Origin: Bryobacterales bacterium
GTDB taxonomy: Bacteria; Acidobacteriota; Terriglobia; Bryobacterales; UBA6623
Length of the DNA stretch: 64,000 nt
Assembly (NCBI GenBank): GCA_963422375.2
Contig: CAXXKD010000001.1
Location: 96,001-160,000 of the forward strand
Direction of reading: 5' to 3'
Shown here: positions 15,064 through 37,813 of the stretch, piece after piece
Layout of the letters: every line of letters starts with the position of its first letter
How positions within the stretch are numbered: position 1 is the first letter of the stretch
Made by a program: the position numbers and the translations under genes
Notes under the pieces: model-generated
What the model saw: the letters and a program-made list of their open reading frames with translations, nothing else
The model's database searches: none
What the model was told of the DNA's origin: nothing

Positions 15064-15890
15064 CGCCCATTCAACTCCGAAGTGCGACAGGCGCCGAGCC
15101 ACAAGATGGCAGGGAGGGGAGAGGGGGGGGCAGCGAGCGGTGGTGTCGCGGCAGTAGGCTGGTAGGTGCTGGAAGGAGCAGGGAGGCGGATGCGGAAGAG
15201 CTACACGCACGTGACGCAGGAGGAGCGCTGCCGGAGCGAGACGCTGCGGGCGGCGGGCTGGGGAGCGGACAGGATCGCCGCGCAGCTGGACCGCAACCGG
15301 GCCACGATCTACCGGGAAGTGAGCCGCAACGGCCGACCGGCGGAGGGCGAGCGCGCGGCGAGCTACAGCTGGGGGAGCGCGCAGGAGCGCGCGGAGCGGC
15401 GGCGGCGCGCGGCGTCGTACCGGCCGCGCAAGCTGACGTCGGCGCTGCGGACGCGGAGCGAGGACTGCCTGCGGCAGGACTGGAGCCCGGAGCAGGAGCC
15501 CGGAGCAGGTCGCGGCACGGCTGCAGCGGGAAGGGGCGCTGGAGATCAGCCCTGAACGGATCTACCAGCTGGTGCGCGCGGAGCGGCGGCAGGGGGGCCG
15601 GCTGTACCGGCACCCGAGGCAGGGCGGCCGCAAGCGCGTCCGGCCGGACGGCCGGACGGCGGGCCGCGGCCTGATCCCGGGGCGCGCGGACATCGCGGAG
15701 CGCCCGGCGGAGGCGCAAGCGAAGGCGCGCGTCGGCGACCGGGAGGCCGACAGCGTGATCGGCGGGCAGCGCCGCGGGGCGCTGGTGACGCTGGTGGACC
15801 GGTTCTCTAAGTACCTGCTAGTGCAGCCGGTTAGCCGGCGCACGGCGCGGCTGGTCGGGGCGGCGATGACGGCCATGCTCGCAGGGAGCC
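15064..15890 (+). mobile_element. Truncated IS30-family element (left IR plus transposase pseudogene from 15190)
   Basis: IR-like CGCCCATTCAACTCCGAAGTGCGACA; YTHVTQEER...IAAQLDRNRATIYREVSRN HTH, WSPEQ, RVGDREADSVIG, LVTLVDRFSK; 13-bp duplication frameshift at 15482-15507; 3' half absent. Confidence 0.88.
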
Positions 15891-17064
15891 CTCGTACCGA
15901 GCGTGCAGCGCACCGAGCGTGAAGCGCGCGCCCGCAGCGGGCTGCCGCGCTCAGCGCGGCGGGCGCCGCTCAGGCCGCGACCGCGGCCTGGCCGGTCAGC
16001 TGCCGGCCGGTCAGCGTCCGGCCGACCAAGCCCCGTGCCATGCGCCGCATCCGTTCCGCCGTGTCGCAGTCGCGGTCGTTGTACCGTCCCGCGAACTCCG
16101 TGAGGTAGCGGCCGAGATGACGGACGCTCATCCGGTGATAGGTTCCGTAGAGGCCGCGCTTGAACAGGGACCAAAATGACTCGATGCCGTTCGTATGCGC
16201 CGCCCCGCGCACGTACTCGCCGCCGGAGTGCCTGATGGCTTCGTGCGGGAACTCCGCCATGCCGGCGCAGGCCGCCGCCTCGTCGGAGTAGAGCTGCGCC
16301 CCCGGCGCGACGCGGGCGCGCACGAAGCCCTGCAGGTCGCCCTTGGCGGTGCCCGGCAGCGGCCGCGCGGCCGCTGCGTTCGTGGCGCGGTCCCGCGCCC
16401 CCGCCACCGGGGTCTTGCCGGCGGGCCCGCGCCCGGCGCGGGCCTTCTTCCTCTCGTGCTTGTTGCGTTCCTTGCCGCCGACGTAGGTCTCGTCCACCTC
16501 CACCGGGCCGGCGAACAGGCCCCGATCCCGCTCCCGGCACGCGCGGATGCGGTGCGCCAGGTGCCAGGCCGACTTCCGGCTGATGCCTAGGTCGCGGTGC
16601 AGCTTCATGCTCGAGACGCCCTTGATGCCGGTGGTCAGCAGGAACAGGGCGACGGCCCAGGTGCGGTAGCCGAGCTCGGTGTCGGCCATCACGCTGCCGG
16701 TGCGCACGGAAAAGCGCTTGCCGCAGCCGCGGCAACGGTACGGCATCGAAGGGTGGGCCGCGTCGGACTGCACGCTGGAGCCGCGGCAGCGGGGGCACGC
16801 GGGACCGTCCGGACAGCGCATGGAGGCGAACCACTTTTCCGCGGATTCGTCATCGGGGAACATGGCGATCACTTCGATCAATGTGATGCCTTTACGGAAC
16901 CACTTTCCGGGACCTGATTTCTTCATTTACGGTATCCCATACTGGAACTATTCTACCAAGAAACACCACAGAATGTCAACGGAAATTCGGAAGAAATATG
17001 AAATATTATTATGGCTTGATAATTTGCCGACTTGATTCCCTCGGCACTCAGATATATAATTCCC
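15888..17064 (-). mobile_element. IS1595-family element copy 1 (right end missing)
   Basis: Left IR GGGAATTATATATCTGAGTGCCGA ending at 17064; homology to copy 2 stops near 15888. Confidence 0.92.
15970..16926 (-). CDS. IS1595-family transposase (open frame, several degenerate residues)
   Basis: Zn ribbon CPRC...CRGC, KGVSSMKLHRDLGI, VEVDETYVGG, YSDE, HTNGIESFWS. Confidence 0.92.
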   Translation of the reverse strand: MKKSGPGKWFRKGITLIEVIAMFPDDESAEKWFASMRCPDGPACPRCRGSSVQSDAAHPSMPYRCRGCGKRFSVRTGSVMADTELGYRTWAVALFLLTTGIKGVSSMKLHRDLGISRKSAWHLAHRIRACRERDRGLFAGPVEVDETYVGGKERNKHERKKARAGRGPAGKTPVAGARDRATNAAAARPLPGTAKGDLQGFVRARVAPGAQLYSDEAAACAGMAEFPHEAIRHSGGEYVRGAAHTNGIESFWSLFKRGLYGTYHRMSVRHLGRYLTEFAGRYNDRDCDTAERMRRMARGLVGRTLTGRQLTGQAAVAA

Positions 17065-17229
17065 AAATAATTCCGCCTGATCAGAACACGACAGTCAATT
17101 CTATGACGCTCATAAACTGGTAGTAATACTATGTACATAAGGCAGTATATGACACAGATTGTCGGTGCTATTCATACAAAATATCTCCGGTAGACAATGC
17201 TTTCAACTCTTATCTAGAGTTCGAACTTA

Positions 17230-18379
17230 CTGAGGGGAGCAAGAGTCGATCTTCCCGTTCGCGCACTCTGCTGAAACCAGTTCCGAAAATTGAATGTGGT
17301 AGAATTTTTGCATGAATCCCTTCCAATGCGACGACTCTCGGCGACTTCGCAAGAAGCTTAAGATCACCGTCCGGAAGTTCGTAGTCACGCAATCCACCCT
17401 CGGCTATGTTCCGGAAGAACTCGCGACGAAATTCGGCATCGGAACCGGAACGGTCAAGTCCTGGGTGGCTAGGTTCATCGCCGGAGGCATGGGGGCACTG
17501 GACGACTGGCCCAGAACAGGGCGCCCTCGCATCCTGACCGAGGAGCACGCCCAGTGGATCTTCCATACCGACGTCGATAAGAATCCCCGGCAGCTCAAGT
17601 TCGAGTTTGCCTACTGAACCGTCCAGCGAGTCCGCCGGGCCTTCATCGACGAGTTCGGCATCGATGCGAGCCGCTGTACCGTCCGCCAGGTCATGCGTCG
17701 GCTCAGGCTCACGCAGCAGAAGCCTCGCTTTCGGGCGTTCCAGCGCCGGATGGGAAAGTCGCGCAATGGATTGACACGAAGATCCCGGAAATCAAGCAGG
17801 ATACCGAGCGGGAATGGGCCTTGATTATGTTCGCTGACTAGGCCGGAATGTGCTCCGACTATTACGTGGGAAGTACGTGGGAATTTCGTGGAAATATGAC
17901 CGCGATGACCTGCACTGTCAAGAAGTTTCTCTTCAACATGTTAGCAGCAATCAGCCCGTACATCCGCATCCATTACATGCTGCACAAGGGCACGAAAGAT
18001 GCTGGAATGTTCTGCTTTTTCGTGAAAAATGGCGGAATAGACTGGCAGAAAGGTGCGCTTTGTGGTGCACGTATGCCGGATTTACACGGCGCTAGAGGTG
18101 GCAAAGTTCCTCGATATGGAATTCGATTATGGCCACGTTTGGATTCATACTCTTCCGGTATACTCCCCGAATATGAATCCATATGAGCTGGTATGGCCGA
18201 ACGTGAAGTGGATGGTGAGCCAGAAATTCTTCAACACTAAGGACGATCTGTTGCGCCTGTTCGAAGCGGACTTCAAGTCGCCAAGGGACCTGACTGACAA
18301 GGTAACTCGATTCTTGAAAGAGCCCGATTGCCAGTACATTCTGGCGTGACCCGACCGATATGACTCTTGCACTCATCAG
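17230..18379 (+). mobile_element. IS630-family element, transposase pseudogene (17312-18349)
   Basis: Imperfect 18-bp IRs (CTGAGGGGAGCAAGAGTC / CTGATGAGTGCAAGAGTC, 15/18) each flanked by TA; HTH, PRQLKFEFAY*T, FAD*AG, LPVYSPNMNPYELVW; internal stops and frameshifts. Confidence 0.88.
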
Positions 18380-18503
18380 TAATGACGACCTTGACATCTA
18401 AGGACAAGTCTAAGAATGGGGAATTATATATCTGAGTGCCGAGGGAATCAAGTCGGCAAATTATTAAGCCATTATAAGATTTCATATTTCTTCCGACTTT
18501 CCG

Positions 18504-18533
18504 TTGACATTCTGTGGTGTTTCTTGGTAGAAT
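18504..18533 (+). promoter_or_regulatory. Sigma70 promoter of the IS1595 transposase
   Basis: TTGACA-N18-TAGAAT upstream of ATG 18557; identical in copy 1 (16950-16979, minus strand). Confidence 0.7.
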
Positions 18534-18556
18534 AGTTCCAGTAGGGGATACCGTAA

Positions 18557-19524
18557 ATGAAGAAATTAGGTCCCGGAAAGTGGTTCCGTAAAGGCATCAC
18601 ATTGATCGAAGTGATCGCCATGTTCGCCGATGACGAATCCGCGGAAAAGTGGTTCGCCTCCATGCGCTGGCCGGACGGTCCCGCGTGCCCCCGCTGCCGC
18701 CGCTCCAGCGTGCAGTCCGACGCGGCCCACCCTTCGATGCCGTACCGTTGCCGCGGCTGCGGCAAGCGCTTTTCCGTGCGCACCGGCAGCGTGATGGCCG
18801 ACACCAAGCTCGGCTACCGCACCCGGGCCGTCGCCCTGTTCCTGCTGACCACCGGCATCAAGGGCGTCTCCAGCATGAAGCTGCACCGCGACCTAGGCAT
18901 CAGCCAAAAGTCGGCCTGGCACCTGGCGCACCGCATCCGCGCGTGCCGGGAGCGGGATCGGGGCCTGTTCGCCGGCCCGGTGGAGGTGGACGAGACCTAC
19001 GTCGGCGGCAAGGAGCGCAACAAGCACGAGAGGAAGAAGGCCCGTGCCGGGCGCGGGCCCGTTGGCAAGACGCCCGTGGCGGGGGCGCGGGACCGCGCCA
19101 CGAACGCAGTGGCCGCGCGGCCGCTGCCGGGCACCGCCAAGGGCGACCTGCAGGGCTTCGTGCGCGCCCGCGTCGCGCCGGGGGCGCAGCTCCGCTCCGA
19201 CGAGGCGGCGGCCTGCGCCGGCATGGCGGAGTTCGCGCACGAAGCCGTCAGGCACTCCGGCGGCGAGTACGTGCGCGGGGCGGCGCATACGAACGGCATC
19301 GAATCGTTCCGGTCCCTGTTCAAGCGCGGCCTGTACGGAACCTATCACCGGATGAGCGTCCGTCATCTCGGCCGCTACCTCACGGAGTTCGCGGGACGGC
19401 GCAACGACCGCGACTGCGACACGGAGGAACAACGGAGGAACAGATGCGGCGCATGGCGCGGGGCTTGGTCGGCCGGACGCTGACCTGCCGGCAGCTGACC
19501 GGCAAGGCCGCGGTCGCGGCCTGA
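18557..19524 (+). pseudogene. IS1595 transposase, frameshifted near the C-terminus
   Basis: Near-identical to copy 1; 11-bp duplication ACGGAGGAACA (19421-19442) shifts the frame; W>R at 18824 and 19310. Confidence 0.9.
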
Positions 19525-20857
19525 GCGGCGCCCGCCGCGCTGAGCGCGGCAGCCCGCTGCGGGCGCGCGCTTCACGCTCGGTGCACTTCACGCTCGGTGC
19601 GAGGGTCGCAGCGGATCCGGCATGCCCCGGTGCGACCCCGGTCCGGCCCGGACCGTCCATGCAGGCCGTCGAGCGCCGGGGATCCGCTGTCTTCGGCCCT
19701 CGCAGGGCTTGCAAGCGGCTTGCAAGGGGTGCCCTGCCACCGCCAACCGGGTTCCACCGGGGCATGCGAGGTGGCCTCTCTAGTCCGTTCCTCGTCAAAC
19801 CCGTTGGCAGGCTCGATTCAGATACGATCCCACCCCTCCGTGCCTGCCGCGGCCGCACTCGAATGACCCGAGCTCGACACCGACCTCCCTGCGCAGAGCA
19901 GTTCTCGTCGGACATGGCGTCGTCGGCACTCAGATATATAATTCCCTAAGAATGCCTCGTGAACGTCTTATCACGGAGATCGTATCCATCGAAACACCAC
20001 GCAAGTGACTATTCATATTCCCCAGAATAACTCCCGATTACTACAAGAAATTAGGATCGATATGGGATTGTTCATGTCTAGGAATGGCCGCAGTTAGTCG
20101 TTGTCATGGGATGTGATGGTTGCGTCCACTTCCTAGAATCGATTGATCTGTCGCTTTGCTAGGTTGAGGACAGTTGCGAGATGATCATCAGTTAGAATTC
20201 TCAGAGCTTCTACTATATGTTGCGCCGTCTTGACATTGAGAGGGTAGAGATCAGGATTCCAAGACAGCTGAGAAGGCGGCAGAGGCCCGACGCCTCGAAC
20301 AGACGCCATCAGGTGCATCCTAGCGAGCTCCTCGACACCGAGTTGTCCCGGTTGTTCTCCAACTGACCATGGGGCTGAGCCGAGAAAGTTCACGATCCTT
20401 CCGTCGGAGACGTAGCCTTGCTAGGTGCCCACGTTGCATAGCATTCGCTCCTGCTGTGACTCGAATGACTCGCGTCCCGCGCGCAGAATGCGAGTGAACC
20501 CACCTCGACCAACTTCTCCGTGCCTGGCGGGCGCCATCTCTCCACGGAGCTCACGTTGACGCCTAGGCAGATCGATCTGCGTCCGCCCGCTGGCACCGGT
20601 GCCATGTGATCTGATTCTGAGCCGTCCGCTAGATCGCATGTCGGAAGCGGTGCGGCAACGGTCGGTTCGACTGGCTCGAATGGCTCGGCCGTCGGGCCGG
20701 CGGCTGTGCCTGCTCTCAGCGAGCGCGCATTGGCTGCGCTTGGAACTGAGCTCTGAGAGCAGGATTCCGGGCTAGGCGCCGCGGATCTGTCGGGCGACCG
20801 TACCGCCTTGACCCGCTGCCGTCAAGGGCTTGTCGGCGCCCTTGCTAAGATCGGATT

Positions 20858-22015
20858 GTGGCCTTCGTATCCGTTGAGGAGGCGCTTGAAGAGTTTCGCC
20901 GGGGCCGCATGATCGTCGTTGTCGACGACGCGGACCGAGAGAACGAAGGGGACCTAACGCTCGGCGCGGAACACGCCACGCCCGAGGCGATCAATTTTAT
21001 GGCCAGGCACGGCCGAGGGCTGATCTGCCTCGCCATGACCGAGCAGCGCTTGGACCATCTCGGGATTCCCTTGGTCTCGCAGCGGAATACGTCGATGTTC
21101 GGCACGGCCTTCAGCGAGCCGATCGATGCGGCGCGCGGAGTGACGACCGGCATCTCGGCTGCGGACCGCTCGCATACCATTCGAGTGGCGACCGCGCCGG
21201 GGACGCGCGCCGCCGATCTGGCCCGGCCCGGTCACGTGCAGACCCTGCGAGCGCGCCGGGGCGGCGTGCTTGTGAGGGCCGGTCAAACAGAGGCGGCTGT
21301 CGACCTTGCCCGCTTGGCGGGGCTAGTGCCGGCAGGCGTGATCTGCGAGATCATGAATGACGACGGAACCATGGCCCGCGTCCCGGACTTGCTGGAGTTC
21401 TGCCGGACGCATGGCATGAAAATGCTCGCGGTCGCGAGCCTGATTCGCTACCGTCTCGAGCACGAGACCTTCGTTAGGCGCGCCGCGGAAGGCTTGGTCG
21501 AGACCGAGTTCGGCGAGTTCAGGGTCGTCGCCTACCGGACCGACTTGGATGACGAGGTCCATCTGGCGCTCGTCGCGGGCGACTTAGAGAGCGTCGATTG
21601 CGCCATGGTGCGCATGCACTCGCAGGACCTGTTCGGAGACGTGTTCGGCTCCGTCTTGAATCCTAGCTATCGGCAGGTGCATGACTCGCTGCGCATGATT
21701 GCTGACAATGGCGCGGGAGCGCTGGTCTACCTGCATCACGGCGCGCTGGGATTCGACGTCGACGAGCAGGCGGAACGCAGCGGCACGATCCGGCCGCACC
21801 CGCAGCTGGCGCGCGGGCCTGCGGCGCGCCCGGGCTCGCGCCTGCAATACAGGGTCGGCATCGGCGCCCAGATACTCAAGGATCTCGGACTGACGAGGAT
21901 CCGTCTCCTGACCAACCGCCCGCGGCGCGTCGCCGGGCTGGAGGGATTCGGAATTCAGATCGTCGAACAGACCCCCATTCGCACTGCGGACGGCGCGGTG
22001 CTCGCGGCTCGCTAG
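20858..22015 (+). CDS. ribB: 3,4-dihydroxy-2-butanone-4-phosphate synthase fused to a degenerate GTP cyclohydrolase II domain (RibBX-like)
   Basis: DDADRENEGDL, TTGISAADR, RPGHV, RAGQTEA, ICEIMNDDG; C-terminal VRMHSQDLFGDVFGS lacks the Zn cysteines. Confidence 0.93.
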   Translation: MAFVSVEEALEEFRRGRMIVVVDDADRENEGDLTLGAEHATPEAINFMARHGRGLICLAMTEQRLDHLGIPLVSQRNTSMFGTAFSEPIDAARGVTTGISAADRSHTIRVATAPGTRAADLARPGHVQTLRARRGGVLVRAGQTEAAVDLARLAGLVPAGVICEIMNDDGTMARVPDLLEFCRTHGMKMLAVASLIRYRLEHETFVRRAAEGLVETEFGEFRVVAYRTDLDDEVHLALVAGDLESVDCAMVRMHSQDLFGDVFGSVLNPSYRQVHDSLRMIADNGAGALVYLHHGALGFDVDEQAERSGTIRPHPQLARGPAARPGSRLQYRVGIGAQILKDLGLTRIRLLTNRPRRVAGLEGFGIQIVEQTPIRTADGAVLAAR

Positions 22016-23307
22016 CGCCTCTGCGACCCGATCGCCCTCGTCAAGTCGCTCGGAAGGCCGCCGGCCCGCATCGCCTGCCGTTCGCGCTCTGCGATCTGCC
22101 TGTGCAGTTCCCGCTCCCGCTTGGCCTCCCTGCTCTTGCCGAGCCGCTGGTAGACCCGCGCGAGCCGGTAGTGCGGCTTGGACGAGTCCGGATTGAGGCT
22201 GGCGGCGCGTTCCAGATGATCCCGGGCTGATTCGAAGTCGCGCCGCTTGTCCAGCAGCACGCCCAGCTCGTAGTGTGCCTCCCAGAAGTCGTCCTTGCGC
22301 TTGATGGACTCCCGCAGCAGGGCTTCGATCCCTGCCATGGCCCCGGGGTCGGGGCGCGGTCCGAGCCGGGCCAGCTGCACCTGGCCGTACAGGAAGGGGC
22401 CGAAGTGGGTCTCGGAGTGCTCCTCGTGGAAGATCCGCAGGCGCCCCTCGACGTCGTCGATGCGCTTGCCCGCGTGCTGCAGCAGGCGTCCGAGGAATGC
22501 GTGCGGCTGTTCCATGCCCGGGGCGAGCTCGGCCGCCCGCAGGAACCGTTCCACGGCCTCGTCGAAGCGGCGCTGGCCGTACGCGGCGATGCCCAGCCCG
22601 ATCTCGATCGCGACGCTCTTGTCGAAGAACCTGCGGCCGACGAGAAAGGCCTGGCGGGCGGCTTCGAAGTCCTGCCGCCGCAGGAAGAAGTAGCCGAGGT
22701 CGTAGTGCAGCGATTCTTCGTACGGTTCCGACTCGACTGCCTGCCTGAGGTGACGCAATCCCTCCGCGGGCCGGTCCGACATCGCATAGGCCTTGCCGAG
22801 GGCGTTATGCAGCGCGGCGGACTCGCCCAACTCTAGCGCCGCCTTTCCGACCTCGGTGGCTCGCAGGGGCATGCCGGCCTGCAGGTACAGCGAGACCGTG
22901 CGGAGAAACGCCTCCGGGTCCTCTCTCGCTCGCGCGAATCTCTCCTCCCACTGCGCCGCTTCGGCCGTCTCGCCGTAGTCGCTGTAGAACATCGCTAGCG
23001 CGTGCTGGATGAGAGGATCGTCCTCGCCCCGCCTGGCGGCCTCGGCCGCGTGCCTGGCGGCCTGCGCGTGCAGGTTCAGCGTGACGTAGACCTGCGCCAG
23101 GCCGATCCACGCGCGCGCCTCGTCCGGGGACTGCTGGATTACGCGTTCCAGGATTTCCTGCGCTTTGGGCAGGTCGCGCGCCTGGAGGGCGATGAGTCCC
23201 TGACGGATCATCGCCTCGGTGGGAGAGCCGTCCGGCTGGGCGCTCGCCGCAGCGCTCGCGCAAAGCGCGAGCGCCCAGCACGCCAGCCACGCTCGGAACC
23301 GCGACAC
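22012..23307 (-). CDS. Exported tetratricopeptide-repeat protein
   Basis: Signal peptide-like N-terminus after GTG 23307; multiple TPR helices (AWIGLAQVY, LHNALGKAY, AHYELGVLL, PHYRLARVYQRLG). Confidence 0.88.
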   Translation of the reverse strand: MSRFRAWLACWALALCASAAASAQPDGSPTEAMIRQGLIALQARDLPKAQEILERVIQQSPDEARAWIGLAQVYVTLNLHAQAARHAAEAARRGEDDPLIQHALAMFYSDYGETAEAAQWEERFARAREDPEAFLRTVSLYLQAGMPLRATEVGKAALELGESAALHNALGKAYAMSDRPAEGLRHLRQAVESEPYEESLHYDLGYFFLRRQDFEAARQAFLVGRRFFDKSVAIEIGLGIAAYGQRRFDEAVERFLRAAELAPGMEQPHAFLGRLLQHAGKRIDDVEGRLRIFHEEHSETHFGPFLYGQVQLARLGPRPDPGAMAGIEALLRESIKRKDDFWEAHYELGVLLDKRRDFESARDHLERAASLNPDSSKPHYRLARVYQRLGKSREAKRERELHRQIAERERQAMRAGGLPSDLTRAIGSQRR

Positions 23308-23370
23308 CGAATTCCAATATAGATCGTCGGCACCCGCCGGGCGCTCGGCGCCTTCGATACACTGCACTGG

Positions 23371-24924
23371 ATGCTCCGAAAACCGTTGGCCGGCGGGGCC
23401 GTCTGCCTCCTCCTTGCAGCCTGCTCTTCGACCGGCGCGTCCGATCGTCCGAACATCCTCTTCGCGATCTGGGACGACGTATCGTATCCCCACGTTTCCG
23501 CCGCAGGCTCGAAGATGGTCTCGACACCTGTCTTCGACCGTGTCGCGTCGGACGGAGTGCTGTTCCGCAACGCATACGCGCCCGCGCCCGGTTGCAGCCC
23601 GACGCGGGCTGCGTTCCTGACGGGGCGTCATATCTGGATGATCGAGCAGGCGGGCACGCACGCCAGCTCGTTCCCGCGAGCCTACGTGTCCTATCAGGAC
23701 CTGTTGGAGGAGGCGGGCTACGCCGTCGGCTACACCGGCAAGCCTTGGGGGCCCGGCAGGTGGGAGAAGTCGGGCCGCACCCGCAACCCGGCCGGGCCGG
23801 GGTACACGGAGAAGACCTTGGACCCGCCGTACGACGGCATGCGCGACTGGGACTACGCTGCCAATTTCGAGGCCTTCTTCGAGTCCAAGCCCGAGGGGCG
23901 GCCCTTCAGCTTCTGGGTCGGCGGGAGCGAAGCGCACCGGCGGTTCGAGAAGGGCTCGTGGAAGAAGGCCGGGAAACGGCTAGAGGACGCCGAAGTGCCG
24001 GCGTTCTTGCCGGACGTCCCGGAGATTCGCGAAGACTTGCTCGACTACGCCGTCGAGATCGAGTGGTTCGACTCGCAGGTCGGACGCATTCTCGACTTCC
24101 TCGAGCAGAAGGAACAGATCGACAGCACGCTGGTGATCTTCACATCCGACAACGGAATGGCCTTTCCGCGAGCGAAGGCCAATCTCTACGACTACGGCAT
24201 CCACATGCCGCTGGCGGTCCGCTGGGCGGGCACGGGCCGGGCGGGCCGGGCGGGCCGGGCGGTGGACGACATCGTGCAGTTTGTGGACCTCACGGCTACG
24301 ATCTTGGACTTGGCTGGAGTGCGCCACCCCGGCGGCACCTCCGCGCCGGTCGGACGAAGCGTCCGCGGCATTCTCGAGTCAAGCGACGACGGCCTAGTGG
24401 ACTCCACCCGCACTCGGGCCTATTCGGGACGCGAGCGGCACTCCTCGTCCCGCTGGGCCAACCTGACGTACCCGCAGCGGTCGATGCGAACCCCGCAACA
24501 CCTCTACATTCGCAACTTCAAGCCGCAGCGCTGGCCCGCCGGCGCGCCGCAGAAGTACGCCGCCGACGGTCGGCTGGAGCCTATGCACGGGGCCTACCAC
24601 GACATTGACGCGTCCCCGACCCTGACCAGGTTGGTCGAGGGGCGCGCCGAGGAAGGCGTCGAGCAGTACCTTGAATGGGCGGTCGGCAAGCGCCCGGCGG
24701 AGGAGCTGTTTGATGTCGAGGCCGACCCCGGCTGCCTCGACAACCTCGCGCTCAAACCCGAGCACGCGATGCTCCTCGGTGAGCTCCGGGACGAGCTGGA
24801 TGCCTACCTGCGCGAGACCGGCGATCCGCGGGCGACGAGCGCTGGCGGCATCTGGGACGACTACATCCGCTACTCGCCCGTGCGGGTCTTCCCCAAGCCG
24901 CCCGACTACGGCCCGGAATACTGA
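23371..24924 (+). CDS. Sulfatase (N-sulfoglucosamine sulfohydrolase-like), probable lipoprotein
   Basis: RPNILFAIWDD, CSPTRAAFLTGR formylglycine motif, FTSDNGMAFPRAKANLYD; lipobox LAAC. Confidence 0.92.
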   Translation: MLRKPLAGGAVCLLLAACSSTGASDRPNILFAIWDDVSYPHVSAAGSKMVSTPVFDRVASDGVLFRNAYAPAPGCSPTRAAFLTGRHIWMIEQAGTHASSFPRAYVSYQDLLEEAGYAVGYTGKPWGPGRWEKSGRTRNPAGPGYTEKTLDPPYDGMRDWDYAANFEAFFESKPEGRPFSFWVGGSEAHRRFEKGSWKKAGKRLEDAEVPAFLPDVPEIREDLLDYAVEIEWFDSQVGRILDFLEQKEQIDSTLVIFTSDNGMAFPRAKANLYDYGIHMPLAVRWAGTGRAGRAGRAVDDIVQFVDLTATILDLAGVRHPGGTSAPVGRSVRGILESSDDGLVDSTRTRAYSGRERHSSSRWANLTYPQRSMRTPQHLYIRNFKPQRWPAGAPQKYAADGRLEPMHGAYHDIDASPTLTRLVEGRAEEGVEQYLEWAVGKRPAEELFDVEADPGCLDNLALKPEHAMLLGELRDELDAYLRETGDPRATSAGGIWDDYIRYSPVRVFPKPPDYGPEY

Positions 24925-24979
24925 TTCGCCGGACAGGCGCGAGGGCGTGGGCGGTCGCGCCCTCGGAGCCGCCGCGGGC

Positions 24980-25666
24980 TCACGCCCCGTGAAGCAGGCG
25001 GACCGCTATCCGCAGTACCGGCCGGAACAAGACGGCGATGAAACACCAGGCTAGGAACAGGCCTAGAATTCCGAAGACTTGGTCTCGCGTGAGGCTGAAC
25101 CACCGTCTGGCGGCATGTTCCGGCATCAGCAGGCCGATCGCGGTATTGCCGTCCAGCGGGGGGACAGGCAGCAGGTTGAACGTCATCAGCAGGACGTTTT
25201 GAGTGAACAGGATGCTCAGGAACTGAGCGATCGGGGCCAGGTCGCCCGAGGCATCGACGACCTTGAAGAAGGTGATCGACGCTGGCACCTCGAATCCGCC
25301 CGTGGCCACGCCCACCCTGATCAGCACGGCCGCCGCGAAAGCCAGCAGGAGATTCGCGGCCGGTCCGGCCAGTGCCATCCACCCAGCCCTGCGAGGGTAC
25401 CGCTGCTCCCACATCGCGCTGTACGGGGCGGACGCCCATCCGATCATCCAGTTGTTGATGGCGAATGTCAGCAACGGGACCGCGACGGTCCCCAGGGGCT
25501 CGCGTCGGATGTGGGGCAGGGGATTGAGCGTGACCTGCCCGGCCGCGGCGGCGGTGTCGTCTCCGCCCTTCAGCGCGGCGAGCGCGTGCGCTGCTTCGTG
25601 GCACGTCAGCGAGAGCAGGAACGCTACGTACCACAGGCCGCCGAGGGCTATCAGGTGGGGGTCCAT
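24980..25666 (-). CDS. Site-2 protease, M50 family
   Basis: HEAAH, ALAGPAAN, FNLLPVPPLDG; hydrophobic. Confidence 0.93.
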   Translation of the reverse strand: MDPHLIALGGLWYVAFLLSLTCHEAAHALAALKGGDDTAAAAGQVTLNPLPHIRREPLGTVAVPLLTFAINNWMIGWASAPYSAMWEQRYPRRAGWMALAGPAANLLLAFAAAVLIRVGVATGGFEVPASITFFKVVDASGDLAPIAQFLSILFTQNVLLMTFNLLPVPPLDGNTAIGLLMPEHAARRWFSLTRDQVFGILGLFLAWCFIAVLFRPVLRIAVRLLHGA

Positions 25667-25699
25667 GGCGGATTCGCTCAGTCTATCCCAGCGAAGCGG

Positions 25700-27214
25700 T
25701 CAGCGTGACCGCCCGGCGTTGCGGACCCTATCCAGGTCCCGGCGCAGTTCCGCGGCCTTCGCTTGTCTCGAGACGGCCAGATTGCGACGCTCGCCGGGAT
25801 CCTCGCTGAGGAGGTAGAGCTGCGACGGGTGTTCCTCCGAGGGGCCGAGGATACGCCCCTTGGGGGAGGAGAATCCGCCGCTGCCGTCTCCGAGGATCAG
25901 CTTCCACGGGCCCTTCCGGACGGCGAACAGGCCCGCGAGGCTGTGATGGACGGTGAGCTTGCGCGCATGCGCCCCACTTCCGGTCAGCGCCGGCAGGAGG
26001 CTGTGGCTGTCCTCGCCAGAGCCGTCGGGCATGTCGAAGCCCACGATCTCGCTGAACGTGGCGAAGAGATCCGTCAGGCATACCGTGCGCTGGGAGACCG
26101 CTGCCGGCGGCACGGTGCCGTCCCAGCGGACGACCAAGGGCACTCGGTGACCCGCTTCCCAGGCGTCGGCCTTCAGCCCGCGCCAGGGAGCGTTGGGCAC
26201 ATGCGAATAGAGTTCCGTTACCGTGCGCGTCGCTCCGAAGCTACCGATGCCGCTTCGCGCCGGCGACCCGTTGTCGGAAGTGAAGACCACGACCGTGTTC
26301 TCGATGGTGCCGGTCCTCTCGAGGACCGCGACGACCTTGCCGAGGATCGCGTCCATCTGGTGGACCCAGTCCCCGTAGGGCCCGGCCTCGCTCTTGCCCC
26401 TGTGCTCGGCGCTCGGAACGATGGGAGTATGCGGGCCAAGTAGCGGCATGAACAGGAAGAACGGCGTGTCCGGAGCGGCCGCTCGATCCTCGAGCCACTG
26501 GATCGCCCGTGCGGTGATGGTGGGCTGGGCGGCCCAGAGATCCCATCGGGGCATCATCGGGCCGGCGCGCTGGCCCTTGTTCGCAGGCATCCGGTCGGCC
26601 GGATTGTCGAGCACGCGGTCGTTCTCGATGAACGCGTACGGCGGGAAGTTCGGCACGTCGTCCCCGAAGTAGTAGTCGAATCCGCGGGTGACGGGCCCCT
26701 CCTTGACCGGCCTGGCAAAGTCGATCCGCTGCCCGTAGGTCTCGTAGTTCGGGCCGACGTTGACCCCCTCCAACTCGTCGGAAAGGTAGCCGCCCCCTTG
26801 CACCGGCCAGTCCCAGCCGAGGTGCCACTTGCCAATGCAGGCGGTCGCGTAGCCCTTGGACTGCAGCGCCTTGCCGAGAGTGAGGCGGTCCCGGGCGATG
26901 ACCGGGCCGCCCCAGCTGTTGACAATCCCGACCGGGAGGCGCGACCGCCACGGATACCGGCCGGTGAGCAGGCCGTAGCGCGAGGGCGTGCAAACGGAAG
27001 AAGTCGCGTGCGCGTCGGTGAAGCGCATGCCGCGGGCGGCGAGGGCGTCGATATGAGGTGTCGGGATGCGTGATCGCGGATTGTAGACGCGCGGGTCGCC
27101 AAAGCCCATGTCGTCCGCGAAGACGATGACTAAGTTCGGAAGGCGCGCTGCAGCGGGGGCGAACGCGCCAATCGACAGCAGGAGCGCGCTTGCAGACGTC
27201 AGGCGGCGCAACAC
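25700..27214 (-). CDS. Arylsulfatase A-like sulfatase
   Basis: PNLVIVFADDMGFGD, CTPSRYGLLTGRY, GKWHLG, FTSDNG, WEAGHRVP; signal peptide. Confidence 0.93.
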   Translation of the reverse strand: MLRRLTSASALLLSIGAFAPAAARLPNLVIVFADDMGFGDPRVYNPRSRIPTPHIDALAARGMRFTDAHATSSVCTPSRYGLLTGRYPWRSRLPVGIVNSWGGPVIARDRLTLGKALQSKGYATACIGKWHLGWDWPVQGGGYLSDELEGVNVGPNYETYGQRIDFARPVKEGPVTRGFDYYFGDDVPNFPPYAFIENDRVLDNPADRMPANKGQRAGPMMPRWDLWAAQPTITARAIQWLEDRAAAPDTPFFLFMPLLGPHTPIVPSAEHRGKSEAGPYGDWVHQMDAILGKVVAVLERTGTIENTVVVFTSDNGSPARSGIGSFGATRTVTELYSHVPNAPWRGLKADAWEAGHRVPLVVRWDGTVPPAAVSQRTVCLTDLFATFSEIVGFDMPDGSGEDSHSLLPALTGSGAHARKLTVHHSLAGLFAVRKGPWKLILGDGSGGFSSPKGRILGPSEEHPSQLYLLSEDPGERRNLAVSRQAKAAELRRDLDRVRNAGRSR

Positions 27215-27449
27215 GAAATTTCGAGTCTACCAGCGTTTCGCGAGAAGGTCTGAGACGGCCGGCCCCGCGCCGAGCTCCTCGCTTTGCGTCGCGGTTGCAC
27301 CACCGCCGGCGGTGCCGGGAAGGCCATGGCGCCGCGCCGGCGGCCGGTCCTAGCCGAGTCGCGGAACCCGTCGCGAGCGCCGGTTCGGCAGCTTCCGCCG
27401 GGCTTCAGGCGGGTGTCCCTCCGGCAGGGGCGCGATATGATCCTCTTCT

Positions 27450-29351
27450 GTGAGCGAGCCGATCATTCTCACCGTCGCCACTCTCGGCTGCGCGGCGTAC
27501 TTCGCCGCGGCCGTGTACCGGCGTCTCCAGCCTCTGCGGACGGCGAAGGAGCGCAATCTCCGCTTCGACCGGCTGGGCCGGCGCCTGTGGGCGGTGCTCG
27601 CGGAGGTGGTCCTGCAATCCAGAGTGATCCGCGAGCGACCCGCGGCCGGAATCCTGCACGCCCTCGTGATGTGGGGATTCTTCGCTTTCGCGTGGGTCAG
27701 CCTGGAGCACTTCGCCGTCGGATTCCGGGGACTGGATGCGGTCGCCGGCGGCTCCTCTTGGTACGCCGCCTTCGCGGGCGCGTGGGCGGTTGCCGTGCTG
27801 GCCGGAATCCTCGGGCTGAGTTTCCGTCGTTTCGTCCTGCGCCCGCGGGCGCTTGGCGAGAGGCTGTCGGGCAGCTCGGCCCTCGTGGCCTTCCTAATTG
27901 CCGTTCTAATGGCTACCTATCTCGCGGACTGGCTGGCGCTCGAGCCGCCGTCGTCGGCCTGGCGGGCCAACTGGTGGGCGCACACCGCCGCGCTGCTCGG
28001 GATGCTCCTGCTGATTCCGAACTCCAAGCACCTGCATCTCGTGCTCGCTCCTCTAGCGATATTCTTCCGCGGTGACGTAACCAGTTCGGTCCGTGCGCTG
28101 CGCGACGAGGATGACGACGATCTCGGCATGCTCGCCTTTTCCGACCTCTCGCAGAAGGACATCCTCGACTTGAACTCGTGCGTCGAATGCGGGCGCTGCA
28201 CCGAGAGCTGCCCGGCGAACGCGGTCGGCGGCTCGCTCGATCCGAAGAACATCGTCCTGCAGATGCAGAAGGGCCTGCTTGCCGGAGGGGACGTGATCGC
28301 TGCGGACGAGTCGCTCGTCGACAGGGGCGAGGCGTGGGTAAGCGAGCGGGATCTCTACCAGTGCCTGTCCTGCGGCGCCTGCGAGCAGTCCTGCCCCGTC
28401 GGGATCGAGCATGTGGGCCTCAAGATCCTCGACCTGCGCCGCGGCCTGGTCAGCGAGGGACGGACCGCGAGCGACAGGCTGCGGGCCATGTTCACCACGA
28501 TGGAGCGAGCGCCTCACAATGCTTGGGGCGTCTCGCAGCAGGTGCGCCGGAAGCTGCTCGAGACGGAGCGCCTGCCGATCTTCGACAGCAAGTCCGAATG
28601 GCTTTTCTGGCTAGGCTGCGGGTGCAGCTACGACTCGAACGGCCACGGTGTCGTGCGCTCGATGCGAACGATCCTCGATGCCGCGGGCGTTTCGTGGGGC
28701 GTTCTCGCATCCGAGAGCTGCTGCGGAGAGCCCGCGCGCCGCGCCGGGAACGAAGGTATCTACTTCGACCTTTCCGAGAAGGTGATCGGGTCGCTGCGCT
28801 CGCAGGGCGTGAAAAGGATCGTGACGTGCGACCCGCATTGCGCCCGTATGTTCGACGCGGACTACCGCCAGCAGCCGGAGTTTCGGGACTCGGGCATCGA
28901 GGTTCTGCATCACACGGAGCTGCTGGCCCGTCTGGTCGGCTCGCTACCGCTGGAGAGCGCCGCGGGCAAGGTCACCCTGCACGACCCGTGCTACTTGGCG
29001 CGGGGCCGGGGAGTCGTCGAGCAGCCGCGCCAGGTGCTGCGGGCCGCGGGCGCCGATCTGGTGGAAATGCGACGGCACGGCGCGGGCACGTTCTGCTGCG
29101 GGGCCGGCGGCGCCCAGCTGTACATCGCCGACGACAGCGTCGAGCTGCCGGGTGGGCGCGTCAACCACAAGCGATTCGACCAGGCCCGGGCCACCGGCGC
29201 CCGGACGGTCGCCGTGGCTTGTCCCTACTGCGGCATCATGCTCCGCGACGCCGCCGGCCGGGCGGGGCGCGACGATATCCGCGTGGCGGACGTCGCCGAG
29301 CTCGTGGCCGCGGGCCTCGCGCGGCGCGACGGCGCTCCGGCTATCGGTTGA
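27450..29351 (+). CDS. Membrane-anchored Fe-S oxidoreductase (HdrD/GlpC/FadF-like, CCG domains)
   Basis: N-terminal TM helices, CVECGRCTESCP and CLSCGACEQSCP, CCGEPARRAG, HDPCYLAR, CCGAGG, ACPYC. Confidence 0.9.
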   Translation: MSEPIILTVATLGCAAYFAAAVYRRLQPLRTAKERNLRFDRLGRRLWAVLAEVVLQSRVIRERPAAGILHALVMWGFFAFAWVSLEHFAVGFRGLDAVAGGSSWYAAFAGAWAVAVLAGILGLSFRRFVLRPRALGERLSGSSALVAFLIAVLMATYLADWLALEPPSSAWRANWWAHTAALLGMLLLIPNSKHLHLVLAPLAIFFRGDVTSSVRALRDEDDDDLGMLAFSDLSQKDILDLNSCVECGRCTESCPANAVGGSLDPKNIVLQMQKGLLAGGDVIAADESLVDRGEAWVSERDLYQCLSCGACEQSCPVGIEHVGLKILDLRRGLVSEGRTASDRLRAMFTTMERAPHNAWGVSQQVRRKLLETERLPIFDSKSEWLFWLGCGCSYDSNGHGVVRSMRTILDAAGVSWGVLASESCCGEPARRAGNEGIYFDLSEKVIGSLRSQGVKRIVTCDPHCARMFDADYRQQPEFRDSGIEVLHHTELLARLVGSLPLESAAGKVTLHDPCYLARGRGVVEQPRQVLRAAGADLVEMRRHGAGTFCCGAGGAQLYIADDSVELPGGRVNHKRFDQARATGARTVAVACPYCGIMLRDAAGRAGRDDIRVADVAELVAAGLARRDGAPAIG

Positions 29352-31527
29352 ACAGGAACGCGTTCGAGTTGATCAGCGCCCAGAGCAGGTCCTGGGCCTT
29401 GGCGGCCCGGCCCGGCGAGGCGCCGATGTAGGTCAATGCTGCGTCGAATTCCTCGGCAGTCGGGAATCGCGCCAGGGACGCGAGGTACAGCTCCTCGATG
29501 AGTTCCCGGTCGCTGCGGCCCGCGAGGATCGCCTGCGCGATGCGACCGTCGGGGCTGGCGATCGCGTCGGCGAGAACCGGCCCGTTCACCAAGCTCATCG
29601 CCAGCGGCAGGCTCAGGTCGTTCCGTCGCTCGCACTCGCAGGGCGACTCCCGCTCCGGCCGCCCGAACGTGTTGAGGAAGCCCCCGGCGTCGACGTGCGG
29701 GTCGGGCAGCTGCTGCGCGCTGAAGTCCTCCGGCACCTCGGGAATGTCCGGCCTTGATCCGGTAGCGATGGTCATCGCGTCCAAGAGCGATTCCGCCGGC
29801 AGGCGGCGCGGCTCGAAGTGGGAGAAGTTGATGCTGTCGCTCTGGTTCCACTCGTTCGTCTCGATGGCCGTCTGGTAGGCCCGCGAGCTGACGATCCTGC
29901 GGATGAGGTGCCGCAGGTCGAACCCGCTGTCCACGAAGTCGCGTTCCAGCGCCGCCAGCAGCGCCGGGTTGGCCGGCGGGTTAGAGCCTCGGATGTCGTC
30001 GACCGGCTCGATGATCCCGCGCCCGAAGAAATAGCTCCAGACGCGATTCGCGATCGCCTGCGCGAAGTACGGGTTCTTCTCGGAGGTCAGCCATTGGGCC
30101 AGGGCCGCGCGGCTGTCCCCGAATGCTCCCACAGGCGGCACGCCGGCCGAGGCGAGCAGGTACTCCGGCTCGACCGGCTTGTTCGTCTTCGGGTGCAGGA
30201 AGTCGGTGTCGTCGCGCTTCAGGTAGACGATCTGCTCGTCGCTGTCGAAGCCCGGTTTCATGCCCACCGCCGCGAAGAAGGCGGCGAGCTGGAAGTACTG
30301 GTTCTGCGTCCAGCGCTCGAAGGGATGGTCGTGACACTGGGCGCAGACCATGCGCACCCCTAGGAACAGCTGCGTGGTGGTCTCCATCGCCAGCTTCGGG
30401 TCGTCGTTGACTCGGAAGTAATTGGCGGCGGGAGTCTGGTAGGTGCTGCCTACCGAGGTGAGCAGCTCGCGCACGAAATCGTCGTACGGCTGGTTGGAAG
30501 CGATCGCGTCCCGGATCCACTGCCGGAAGGCCCACATGCCCTTCTCGCCGAGATGCTTGCGGTTGGACTGCAGCAGGTCGCCCCACTTGAGGGTCCAGTG
30601 GTCGACGTAGCCGCGACTGCCCACCAGCGCGTTGACCAGGCGCGCCCGCTTGGCCTTGGACGTGTCCGGATCCTCGAGAAAGGCGCGGGCCTGCTCGGGG
30701 GTCGGCGGGATGCCCGTCAGGTCGATGTACACCCGCCGCAGGAACGCCGCGTCGCCGGCCTCCTCGGAAGGCTGGATCTTCAGCCGCTTCAGCTTGGCGT
30801 CGATGTGCTCGTCGATGTAGTTGTACTGGGGCGGCTCCCGCCAGGCGAAGCCGGGAGCGGGGTTCAGCACCGTTAGCGGCACGGTGGTGAACTTGCCCTC
30901 GTAGCGCACCATGATGGCGGCCTCCCCGATACGCTCCCCGCGCACCGCGCCGCCATCCACGACCTTGGCCGTGCTGGTGGAGTTGCTCTCCACCACGGCC
31001 AGCTTCGTGACGTCCCGGGTCGATCCGTCCCCGTAGTGGGCGATCACTTCGAGCGCCTGGTCGCGGCCGGGCTCGTCCAGCAGGACCTCCTCGGGCCGGA
31101 CGACCAGCTTGGCCACGCTGTCCATTTCGGGGTCGCCGTACGGCGCGCCCTGCGAGATCCACCGGGCGATTGTCCGGAAGGCGTCCGAGTCCTCGTCGAA
31201 GCGCTGTCCGCCCTCGTGCGGAACGCGCATGGTCGGCTTCGCCAGCATGAGGCTGGCTGCGGGGACCGCGCGATTGAACCGCCGCCCGGACACCTCGAAC
31301 AGCAGGGCGCGGTAGTCGAACTCCGCGTCGTACCCGCGCAGCGACAGCTTGAATCCGTTCTTGCCCTTGGCCGCGCCGTGGCAGGCGCCGGCCGTGCAAC
31401 CGGCGCTGTTGAGGATCGGCATCACGTCGCGCAGGAAGCTGGCGCGGCTCTCCTCGGCGGCTGCGACGGGGCGGCCTAGGGCCGCCAGCACGGCTAGGGT
31501 GGCCAAGAGGCACTGCATTGTCTTCAT
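29341..31527 (-). CDS. DUF1549/DUF1553 (Planctomycete PSD1-type) protein with Ig-like domain
   Basis: Signal peptide; CTAGACHG..KGKNGFKLSLRGYD, FLRRVYIDLTG..PT, CAQCHDHPFERWTQ, NRVWSYFFGRGIIEPVDD, FGRPERESPCECER, DLLWALINS. Confidence 0.9.
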   Translation of the reverse strand: MKTMQCLLATLAVLAALGRPVAAAEESRASFLRDVMPILNSAGCTAGACHGAAKGKNGFKLSLRGYDAEFDYRALLFEVSGRRFNRAVPAASLMLAKPTMRVPHEGGQRFDEDSDAFRTIARWISQGAPYGDPEMDSVAKLVVRPEEVLLDEPGRDQALEVIAHYGDGSTRDVTKLAVVESNSTSTAKVVDGGAVRGERIGEAAIMVRYEGKFTTVPLTVLNPAPGFAWREPPQYNYIDEHIDAKLKRLKIQPSEEAGDAAFLRRVYIDLTGIPPTPEQARAFLEDPDTSKAKRARLVNALVGSRGYVDHWTLKWGDLLQSNRKHLGEKGMWAFRQWIRDAIASNQPYDDFVRELLTSVGSTYQTPAANYFRVNDDPKLAMETTTQLFLGVRMVCAQCHDHPFERWTQNQYFQLAAFFAAVGMKPGFDSDEQIVYLKRDDTDFLHPKTNKPVEPEYLLASAGVPPVGAFGDSRAALAQWLTSEKNPYFAQAIANRVWSYFFGRGIIEPVDDIRGSNPPANPALLAALERDFVDSGFDLRHLIRRIVSSRAYQTAIETNEWNQSDSINFSHFEPRRLPAESLLDAMTIATGSRPDIPEVPEDFSAQQLPDPHVDAGGFLNTFGRPERESPCECERRNDLSLPLAMSLVNGPVLADAIASPDGRIAQAILAGRSDRELIEELYLASLARFPTAEEFDAALTYIGASPGRAAKAQDLLWALINSNAFLFNR

Positions 31528-33953: not shown

Positions 33954-33957
33954 GGGC

Positions 33958-35331
33958 TCAGCCCGCGTCGCCTGCTGCCGCGGAGGCGCCGGCGCGCTCG
34001 AGCGGCACGGGCACGAACGAGCTGGCCGGCGCGCCCGTCCGCGCGTCGTAGACGCGGACAACGCCGTCGAAGCCGCCGGTCGCGACGCGGCTGCCGTCCG
34101 GGTGGAAGGCCACCACGAAGATGCCGCCTTCGTGGCCGGTGCAGGTCGCCACGCGCTCGCCCGATTCGGTGTCGTAGACCGGCACCTCGCCGGCGACCCC
34201 GCCGACCGCGATCCGCGACCCGTCCGGGCTGAAGGCGAGCGCGAAGATCTTGCCCTCCTGTTCCTCGAACTCCCGGACGAGCGTCGAGTCATCGGCGATC
34301 TTCAGCGCCCTGGGCCGGTCCATCGTGTACAGGTAGGGTACGCGGTCCTCACCTCCGATCAGGACGTAGTCGCGCAACGGGTGGCGGGCGATCGCGTACA
34401 GCTTGTCGCGCAGGAAATTCACGTTCTCGAGGAAGGCTCCGGTGGCGGCGTCGGCGAGCTTCGCCGCGCGGTCGCGGCCGATGGAGACCAGCCGCTTGCC
34501 GTCGACGCCGAACACCGCCTGCAGCACCCAGTCCTCGTGGTGCCCGGCCTTGAACAATTCCTCGCCGCTGGCGAGATCGACCATGCGGACCGTCTTGTCG
34601 GCGGCCCCGAATACCGCCCTGGTCCCGTCCGGCGACAGATCGCCGGCGAACAGCGTGTCGGAGGTCGCGGTATAGGAATGCACCTGCTCGCCTAGCTCGA
34701 GATCCCAGACCTGCAGCTCGCCGAAGCGCGCCGGCGTGCCCCCGACGGCGATCAGCCGGCGGCCGTCGGGCGAGAAGTCGATGGAATGGATCTTGTCGGC
34801 GCGGCCCAGCAGGCGCGCCTCGATGGACGAGCCGTCCGCCTTGTGCAGGAGGATCTCCTGGAACCCCCCGACGGCCAGCAGGGCGCCGTCGGGCGAGTAC
34901 GCCAGGCCGGTGATCGTGGGGGCTTGGGCGTAGGTCGGGGGTTCCGACGGCACCTGCGGTGCCTTGGCCTCGGCCGGGGTGTCGTCCTCGGCTCCTTCGC
35001 GCACCCAGCGCTCCAGCAGGTCGACGGCCTGCGACGCCAGGGGGCCCCCTCCCATCGGCATGCGGGGCTCCATCTGCCCTGTTACCAAGTTCACCAGCGG
35101 GCTGTTCCCGGGGGCGCCCTTGGCCACCGCGGCGCCGTGCTTCGCCCCTCCGCGAACGATCCCGGGGTAATTCGTGATGTCGAGCCCGCTCATGCTGTTG
35201 GCAGGCTGGTGGCAGCCCGAGCAGTGGACCTGGAGCAGCGGGCGCACCTCCTCGAAGTAGCTGACGGGCTCGGCCGCCCCCGCGATGGCGATCAGCGCGG
35301 TCACGGCCGCGAGGAGGCGCAGGTAGCACAT
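33958..35331 (-). CDS. Planctomycete cytochrome c domain plus WD40 repeat protein
   Basis: Signal peptide, VRPLLQVHCSGCH, RMPMGG..WVREGA; WD40 repeats (AYSPDG, DFSPDG, AFSPDG, AFHPDG..ATGGFDGVVRVYD). Confidence 0.92.
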   Translation of the reverse strand: MCYLRLLAAVTALIAIAGAAEPVSYFEEVRPLLQVHCSGCHQPANSMSGLDITNYPGIVRGGAKHGAAVAKGAPGNSPLVNLVTGQMEPRMPMGGGPLASQAVDLLERWVREGAEDDTPAEAKAPQVPSEPPTYAQAPTITGLAYSPDGALLAVGGFQEILLHKADGSSIEARLLGRADKIHSIDFSPDGRRLIAVGGTPARFGELQVWDLELGEQVHSYTATSDTLFAGDLSPDGTRAVFGAADKTVRMVDLASGEELFKAGHHEDWVLQAVFGVDGKRLVSIGRDRAAKLADAATGAFLENVNFLRDKLYAIARHPLRDYVLIGGEDRVPYLYTMDRPRALKIADDSTLVREFEEQEGKIFALAFSPDGSRIAVGGVAGEVPVYDTESGERVATCTGHEGGIFVVAFHPDGSRVATGGFDGVVRVYDARTGAPASSFVPVPLERAGASAAAGDAG

Positions 35332-35585
35332 GCGATTACGGTTCCCACAGTATTGTAGGCGCTAGGCTCTCCCCGCTCAAGGGGGGAGGGGCGGGCAGCT
35401 GCCCGCATTCCGTCGACGCGGGCCCGGGCGGACGTCGCGCTGCCCTTCGCCCGGCCTCGGAGCGGCCCCGGCTTCGGTTACCTAGATATCCGGCGGGCCA
35501 TCGGTGGATCGCTTGCGGGCGGAGCAGATGGCGAGCGGAGCGCTGCCCGCGAGTCGCTTCTTGGTCCGGAGTCGTATCTGAACGA

Positions 35586-37425: not shown

Positions 37426-37485
37426 AGGGAATGGCGCTCGGCGGCGGTGTGCTAACATCGGCTCGTCGCAGCGGCGACGGAGCGC

Positions 37486-37770: not shown

Positions 37771-37813
37771 GGGGCGGGTCCCGGGCGCGCTGCTTGGCGC
37801 GCCGTTGCATGCC

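Follow-up and report, generated by a model that had tools for sequence, protein, structure and literature searches.

GC-biased exchange between copies as the probable route of insertion sequence decay in a Bryobacterales genome

A 64,000-nucleotide stretch from Bryobacterales bacterium (assembly GCA_963422375.2, contig CAXXKD010000001.1, positions 96,001 to 160,000 of the forward strand; this whole stretch is here called the window and is numbered from its first base) contains several insertion sequence (IS) elements whose transposases have lost conserved residues through changes toward guanine and cytosine (GC), and it raises the question of how transposons can decay in this direction with their reading frames still open. 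An original prediction, made from the sequence of the window alone, proposed that the damage results from a repeat-directed mutation or biased-conversion process that often creates CCGG. The question was examined here across the IS families of the genome and in relatives from the same genus. The elements of the window that bear on it are listed below.

15064 to 15889, plus strand: IS30-family element, the left 813 of 1377 bp, assigned on the basis of HTH_38.
15889 to 17064, minus strand: IS1595 copy 1, with its left terminal repeat at 17064, a transposase open reading frame (ORF) at 15970-16926 and its 3' end cut (1185 of 1535 bp); PF12762.
17228 to 18381, plus strand: IS630-family element, nearest sister 86.3% identical, stops present.
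18419 to 19946, plus strand: IS1595 copy 2, complete, with a 24-bp terminal repeat at each end and an ORF at 18557-19483; PF12762.
59153 to 60200, minus strand: IS1595 copy 3, 5'-truncated, with its right terminal repeat at 59153; PF12762.

The assignment to IS1595 is based upon matches above the cut-off to PF12762 (DDE_Tnp_IS1595) in all three copies and upon the terminal repeats at 17064, 18419, 19946, and 59153. The substitutions that the original prediction named in these copies and in the IS30 element are all present at their positions. Copy 1 carries Q117R, V185A, and Q292R, which are shared with other copies, and the private changes W38C and V231I; copy 2 carries W90R (18824), Y213R, and W252R (19310); and copy 3 carries L113P, Q117R, V185A, L198R, Y213R, V239A, W252R, L271P, Q292R, a TTG>CCG change and the loss of its stop codon (TGA>CGA). 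A TAC>TGC change that had been ascribed to copy 2 is found there but also in copy 1, at codon 220. The IS1595 frames are indeed free of internal stops, yet copy 2 contains an 11-bp duplication near 19420-19440, close to its 3' end, and the IS30 frame is shifted by a 13-bp tandem duplication near 15485-15510. The unrelated IS30 element shows the same trend toward GC that had been noted for it, with a W>R change (CGG at 15740) present in every covering copy and an L>P change (CCG at 15614) present in 10 of 23 copies, and the IS630 element has the ordinary stops described, including TGG>TGA at 17615 and others.

The genome (6.0 Mb, 67% GC, three contigs) contains 134 IS1595 matches of at least 300 bp, most of them 88-97% identical to copy 1, together with further IS families of 105, 64, 33, 24, 24, 15, and 10 copies and a small IS630 group. 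Set against these copies, the changes in the window are mostly not the private damage for which they had been taken, since W90R is present in 98, Q117R in 99, Y213R in 92, and Q292R in 76 of the approximately 105-117 copies covering each site. The majority consensus of IS1595 itself carries W90R, L113P, Q117R, and Y213R, where the copies from relatives mostly have W, L, Q, and Y (or H), and hence most of the changes in the window are alleles of the whole family. Damage of this kind is apparent in the majority consensus of each of the eight IS families examined. Seven of these were compared with outgroups, and the eighth (F16), which we take to be IS1380-like, had no outgroup and was used for singleton counts only.

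The direction of change was determined with the help of 7-21 outgroup loci from the genus, at codons where at least 80% of these loci have the same residue, counting nonsynonymous single-base changes with the two strands collapsed. For the four families counted in this way, 128 of 134, 104 of 105, 62 of 64, and 24 of 24 copies were kept, and 49 codons at which the conserved residue is absent from every copy were set aside. The spectrum remains directed toward GC after polarization with relatives and is neither symmetric nor AT-biased. The sites at which a change has reached at least 10% of copies number 69 of 466 for T>C, 21 of 484 for T>G, 18 of 843 for C>G, 4 of 823 for C>A, 3 of 601 for C>T, and 1 of 484 for T>A, so that both weak-to-strong classes are favoured and the weak-to-weak class T>A is not. 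The difference between T>C and C>T has a Fisher p of about 1e-22, a value that is overstated because the sites are not fully independent, and among the rare classes, some of the changes at high frequency probably represent the replacement of lineages and not decay. In three smaller families, the sites common to at least three copies number 17, 8, and 4 for T>C, 4, 3, and 6 for T>G, and 0, 1, and 1 for C>T, and the family of 10 copies is as loaded as those of 100. Both strands are affected (41 T>C and 28 A>G on the coding strand), and only 7 stop alleles are found among the 128 IS1595 copies.

The favoured changes depend strongly upon their neighbouring bases. T>C has reached 10% of copies at 6 of 6 TAGG sites, 35 of 75 TGG sites, 21 of 163 other sites with T before a purine, 3 of 21 T[C/T]GG sites, and 4 of 201 other sites with T before a pyrimidine, so that 41 of 81 sites in the TGG/TAGG motif are affected versus 28 of 385 elsewhere. 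The motif is thus a T before GG or AGG, and not CCGG alone. The creation of CCGG, which the original prediction emphasized, is enriched (24 of 51 such sites reach 10%, versus 45 of 415 others), but it accounts for only 949 of 2770 T>C alleles and a CCGG-only rule does not hold. The ratio CTGG/(CTGG+CCGG) is 0.22 in repeats with at least 10 copies versus 0.33 in single-copy ORFs, and for CTGC, which serves as a control, the values are 0.36 versus 0.35. The T>G changes occur mostly after another T (16 of 96 sites versus 5 of 388), and as this second class cannot arise from T:G repair, the repair of T:G mismatches that had been suggested can be only a part of the explanation.

Variants that are present in one copy only provide a view of the changes before they have spread. 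In the eight families, these single-copy variants comprise 811 C>T and 309 C>A per 8164 G/C sites and 320 T>C and 209 T>G per 3641 A/T sites, and the rates for C>T and T>C (0.099 versus 0.088) are balanced. The motif does not show an excess of single-copy T>C variants (32 of 311 sites, versus 288 of 3322 elsewhere). Additionally, identical 7-mers (CGGTGGC, CCGTGGT) have opposite outcomes, with allele frequencies of 0 and of 0.84-0.93, and the CTGG sites are bimodal, 10 of 36 being at zero and 18 of 36 at 0.44 or above, as expected if a donor allele must first exist. Based upon the balanced single-copy variants, the discordant 7-mers and the bimodal CTGG sites, the bias lies in the spread of variants among copies and not in their origin.

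Exchange among the IS copies, which the original prediction had supposed, is evident from the linkage between their sites. In 89 near-full IS1595 copies, linkage between non-transition sites declines from an r2 of 0.33 at distances of 1-3 bp to 0.26 at 4-10 bp, 0.13 at 11-25 bp and about 0.05 beyond 50 bp, and all four gametes are present in 80-89% of distant site pairs. The copies are therefore mosaics that have exchanged tracts of tens of bases or less, with linkage fading within about 25 bp, and because of this a tree of the 89 copies is unstable. W90R is equally frequent on two backgrounds distinguished by bases 2-3 bp from it (78 of 92 copies on one and 18 of 21 on the other), and where a neighbouring variant makes CTGG the change is present in 29 of 33 copies, versus 0 of 76 without this variant. 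These two patterns fit repair patches of a few bases, although recurrent mutation would look alike at these sites.

We consider it probable that these observations reflect short-patch, GC-biased conversion between near-identical IS copies, with Vsr (acting on T:G) and MutY (acting on A:G) as candidate agents. Starting from the exchange, direction, motif and balanced origin described above, the heteroduplex and the enzymes would contribute as follows. New mutations would arise without any lean toward GC, as the single-copy variants indicate, and near-identical copies would pair and swap tracts of tens of bases or less through a putative heteroduplex. A T:G mismatch before GG or AGG would be resolved in favour of C:G, with the orphan Vsr of this genome as the probable agent, and an A:G mismatch would likewise be repaired to C:G, probably by MutY. 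A G or C allele, once present in one copy, would then sweep through the family, and such sweeps would turn W, Y, L, Q, V, and H codons into R, C, P, R, A, and R codons, respectively, without creating stops. Stop alleles, which result mostly from G/C-to-A/T changes, would remain rare, and copies lacking a close sister would decay in the ordinary way. The process is likely a by-product of repair and not a dedicated defence against transposons.

A search for vsr and C5-methyltransferase genes, as had been proposed, located them elsewhere in the genome, and the window holds no causative gene, as had been stated. The vsr gene (G000:C2:2578614) has matches above the cut-off to PF03852 and TIGR00632, and no C5-methyltransferase match lies within 1.5 kb of it. 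The genome has 18 matches to PF00145 (C5-methyltransferase), several of them broken. A MutY-like HhH-GPD gene at G000:C2:826560, named from its sequence without a family call, and two genes of the uracil-DNA glycosylase (UDG) family are also present, and the candidates for mutT are two Nudix matches that fall below the curated cut-off. Judged by their sequences, recA, mutS, and mutL appear whole, mutS and mutL being above the cut-off and without stops and the predicted MutS retaining its F-x-E motif. One C5-methyltransferase gene occurs at three loci (L022, L023, L024) with identical scores, and at two of these a fragmented second methyltransferase lies alongside.

A different process that could account for the motif is a repeat-directed mutator, either a reverse form of repeat-induced point mutation (RIP) or an adenine deaminase with paired repeats as its substrate, which would make T>C anew in each copy at TGG and TAGG. 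The strength of the motif, the occurrence of alleles on backgrounds that differ 2-3 bp away and the restriction of the effect to multicopy DNA are all in its favour. However, the motif has no excess of single-copy T>C variants, and low-frequency T>C variants show none that is significant (11 of 40 versus 64 of 357, p=0.14); identical 7-mers stand at frequencies of 0 and about 0.9; recombination among the copies is seen at non-transition sites; and the T>G class would require a second mutator. In view of these results, we regard a mutator of this kind as unlikely, and the comparison to a reversed RIP drawn in the original prediction fails at the same point, as new T>C variants are not more frequent even at the motif. 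In fungi, RIP inactivates repeats by context-specific, directional C-to-T changes. The process described here resembles RIP in that repeats gain context-specific, directional changes which inactivate transposons, but it runs in the opposite direction, the mutation rate at the motif is not raised, and the changes are shared and not private. RIP-like mutation itself was rejected, as the de novo rate is not raised at the motif and the C>T direction is not seen.

It may also be asked whether a context-dependent bias of mutation or repair acts upon the whole genome and is only unmasked in dead IS DNA. In favour of this, T before G is scarce at the fourfold sites in ordinary genes (C_GG 0.08 and C_GA 0.07, versus 0.39 for C_CC), and the singletons are balanced and not AT-biased. 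On the other hand, no excess at the motif is seen in single-copy broken genes. Of 71 broken loci scored (38 single-copy, 15 low-copy, and 18 multicopy), the single-copy ones show T>C at 5 of 205 TGG/TAG sites and 43 of 1229 other T sites and C>T at 63 of 2326 sites, although this control contains paralogue divergence; the bias toward GC that would signal a genome-wide mutator is thus not observed. CCGG stands at 1.04 of its expectation in the genome, and the apparently whole mutS and mutL genes, with the MutS F-x-E motif kept, also argue against a bias of this nature.

The IS630 element of the window provides a further control, as it has no close partner. Relatives of IS630 were not found in the 30 other genomes of the genus at an E value of 1e-25, and as its protein homologues are only 30-45% identical and too distant for a codon tally, private changes at the DNA level were used instead. 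These number 28 C>T, 15 C>A, 6 T>C, and 2 T>G, indicating a decay toward AT that is fourfold per site. The four close IS630 copies, when polarized, share 12 T>C, 8 T>G, 10 C>T, and 2 C>A changes, which is a weak lean. We infer that the contrast between IS630 and IS1595 reflects the lack of a close partner rather than the lower GC content of IS630. Taken with this control, the results make a genome-wide bias quite unlikely as the main cause.

We also considered that a few damaged founder copies were multiplied in trans and then mixed by unbiased conversion. This would be in accordance with an adjacent double change, TA>CG, that travels jointly (92 of 108 copies, with 2 intermediates), and with the fixation of some of the changes in whole families. 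A founder effect gives no direction, yet seven unrelated families show the same T>C motif skew with almost no shared C>T, and this explanation is accordingly very unlikely.

Lastly, methylation-linked base-call errors or collapsed repeats are highly improbable. In their favour, the assembly has only three contigs and is probably based upon long reads, runs X1-X6 have no recorded platform, and the reads obtained from the raw Illumina Hi-C data of X7 and X8 numbered 0 and 1. However, the contigs of runs X2 and X4 show 0 differences over 19,982 single-copy bases, as do the listed pieces from X1 and X6 (three studies, one of them possibly the source), and the same IS alleles are found in X1 and X2 contigs (for example T>C at 18894, which accounts for 9798 of a depth of 22474). 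The agreement of the runs over both single-copy DNA and IS alleles thus does not uphold the assembly artefact that had been raised as an alternative. Around rpoBC, TGG>CGG is found at 0 of 42 conserved W positions and a change at 0 of 96 conserved Y positions, in a set that mixes true and shadow frames and was used for W and Y only. Single-nucleotide polymorphisms between strains, sought for a neutral spectrum, number none in about 20 kb (window 21019-41000; contigs from runs of three studies, 2015-2023), and these zero differences suggest that the population is nearly clonal.

Several other processes were considered and rejected. Diversity-generating retroelements change A to any base on one (template) strand. 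Mutagenesis of this type is not in accordance with the changes on both strands or with T>A at 1 of 484 sites, and RNA editing is likewise excluded by changes on both strands. A mutator due to loss of mismatch repair does not agree with mutS and mutL genes that are predicted to be whole and are free of stops. Selection by the host for inactivation would presumably favour stops equally.

Apart from the paralogue divergence in the pseudogene control, a number of observations weigh against biased conversion as proposed. Only 1 of 6 TTGG sites has reached 10%, and the CTWGG motif of the Escherichia coli Vsr fits TAGG (6 of 6) but not TTGG. The avoidance of T before G at fourfold sites may indicate a weaker genome-wide bias. 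Four other orphan pieces of IS630 are only mildly AT-ward (strong-to-weak changes 0.08-0.10 versus weak-to-strong 0.06-0.08). A pooled linkage contrast between driven sites (r2 0.079, 26 pairs) and neutral sites (0.213, 16 pairs) is not significant (p=0.31). In the whole genome CCWGG is at 0.67 of its expectation, with CCTAG at 1.27 and CCAAG at 1.19, and a depletion of CCWGG does not look like efficient repair of the E. coli Vsr type at that motif. In the genus, a vsr match is found in 30 of 31 genomes, so that possession of the gene does not account for the distinctness of this genome. Four families of this genome carry 52, 60, 98-103, and 27 T>C changes per 1000 conserved codons, versus 0-10 in sets of 3-10 copies from eight relatives (G003, G007, G008, G015, G021, G044, G045, and G046), where the copies are best hits and hence biased to young, intact ones; a further relative, G023, reaches 27 without the motif.

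We infer that this genome stands out through the long residence of very many copies. The heavily decayed IS1595-family fragments of G023 (L190-L201) carry T>G in 99 of 194 classified changes, 71 of the 99 before G (CA>CC), and 12 stops, a load that could reflect another conversion bias or a mutT-like mutator. G045, which is 95% complete, is the sole genome of the 31 without a vsr match, and its decayed IS copies show 15 C>T versus 6 T>C changes; it is a possible natural control.

A number of additional features were noted in the window and the genome. The IS30 element, of which 813 of 1377 bp are left, and IS1595 copy 1, shortened to 1185 of 1535 bp, abut tail to tail at base 15889, and this one-base junction suggests a deletion between the two. 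The IS630 element sits between IS1595 copies 1 and 2, which point in divergent orientation. The AT-rich left end of IS1595 (consensus 20-150; window about 16915-17045 and about 18440-18570) shows far more polymorphism than the coding region and exists in at least two types. A 1150-aa ORF at 55657-59109, whose family matches are weak, lies in an island of 54-58% GC adjoining IS1595 copy 3, and an Rfam scan of the window gave no match. In the genome as a whole, GTGCAC and AAGCTT are at 0.19 and 0.56 of their expectations; these, together with the skews of CCWGG, CCTAG, and CCAAG, can be read as footprints of restriction avoidance or cytosine methylation.

Of the known systems, GC-biased gene conversion has been proposed for bacteria from the relation between gene-level GC content and recombination, with mismatch repair suggested as its source (Lassalle et al., 2015; PMC4450053). 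As it is portrayed there, G and C are favoured in the spread and not the origin of variants, transitions and transversions are both affected, and harmful alleles are carried along, as in the present case. However, the substrates here are dispersed paralogous IS copies of one genome, the evidence is an allele-frequency spectrum, and the dependence upon a motif is strong. The proposed repair of T:G to C:G in short patches at GG-containing motifs is a likeness to the Vsr systems, such as E. coli Vsr/Dcm (PMC2715241), the multispecific Neisseria enzymes V.NgoAXIII/XIV that cut CTGG/CCGG (PMC6116569), and Caulobacter VsrA (PMC12907096), and this genome likewise has an orphan vsr and several C5-methyltransferases. 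Unlike in E. coli, the motif is TGG/TAGG and not CTWGG, T>G is left unexplained, and the substrate would be a heteroduplex between copies and not a deaminated 5-methylcytosine.

The action of MutY on A:G and A:C in recombination heteroduplexes has been modelled for Helicobacter pylori (PMC2582958), and removal of A from A:G or A:C would similarly give T>G and T>C in short patches. That model concerns transformation and not ectopic conversion between IS copies. A pneumococcal hyperrecombination of MutY type was reportedly described by Samrakandi and Pasta in 2000, and gene conversion among dead IS copies of the Wolbachia strain wBm was reportedly described by Cordaux in 2009. The wBm case would resemble the present one in that non-functional bacterial IS copies undergo conversion; compared with homogenization of that kind, the copies here are several percent apart and the process is directional. 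A literature search, most subscription journals being outside its coverage, revealed no account of conversion among bacterial IS copies that is both directional and motif-specific.

A broader proposal is doubtful at present and is put forward tentatively: the candidate orphan Vsr and MutY, acting on DNA of paired IS copies, might amount to a drive, specific to a motif and acting throughout the genome, by which all transposon families of long residence are disabled without stops, with a signature particular to each lineage (TGG/TAGG>C here, CA>CC in G023). In function, such a drive would correspond in bacteria to RIP, but with repair as its basis, and could give bacterial GC-biased gene conversion a concrete molecular mechanism. 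Arguments over the role of such conversion in bacterial base composition have so far drawn upon indirect correlations. In the present genome, hundreds of paralogous copies supply a frequency spectrum that separates origin from spread, orphan copies and single-copy pseudogenes serve as built-in controls, and the motif names enzymes that can be tested. If biased conversion between the copies is true, these families would offer a rare opportunity to see GC-biased gene conversion directly in a bacterium. It would also explain how IS families can die with their open reading frames, and, as they would do so without stops, open frames and consensus sequences would mislead about the activity of such elements.

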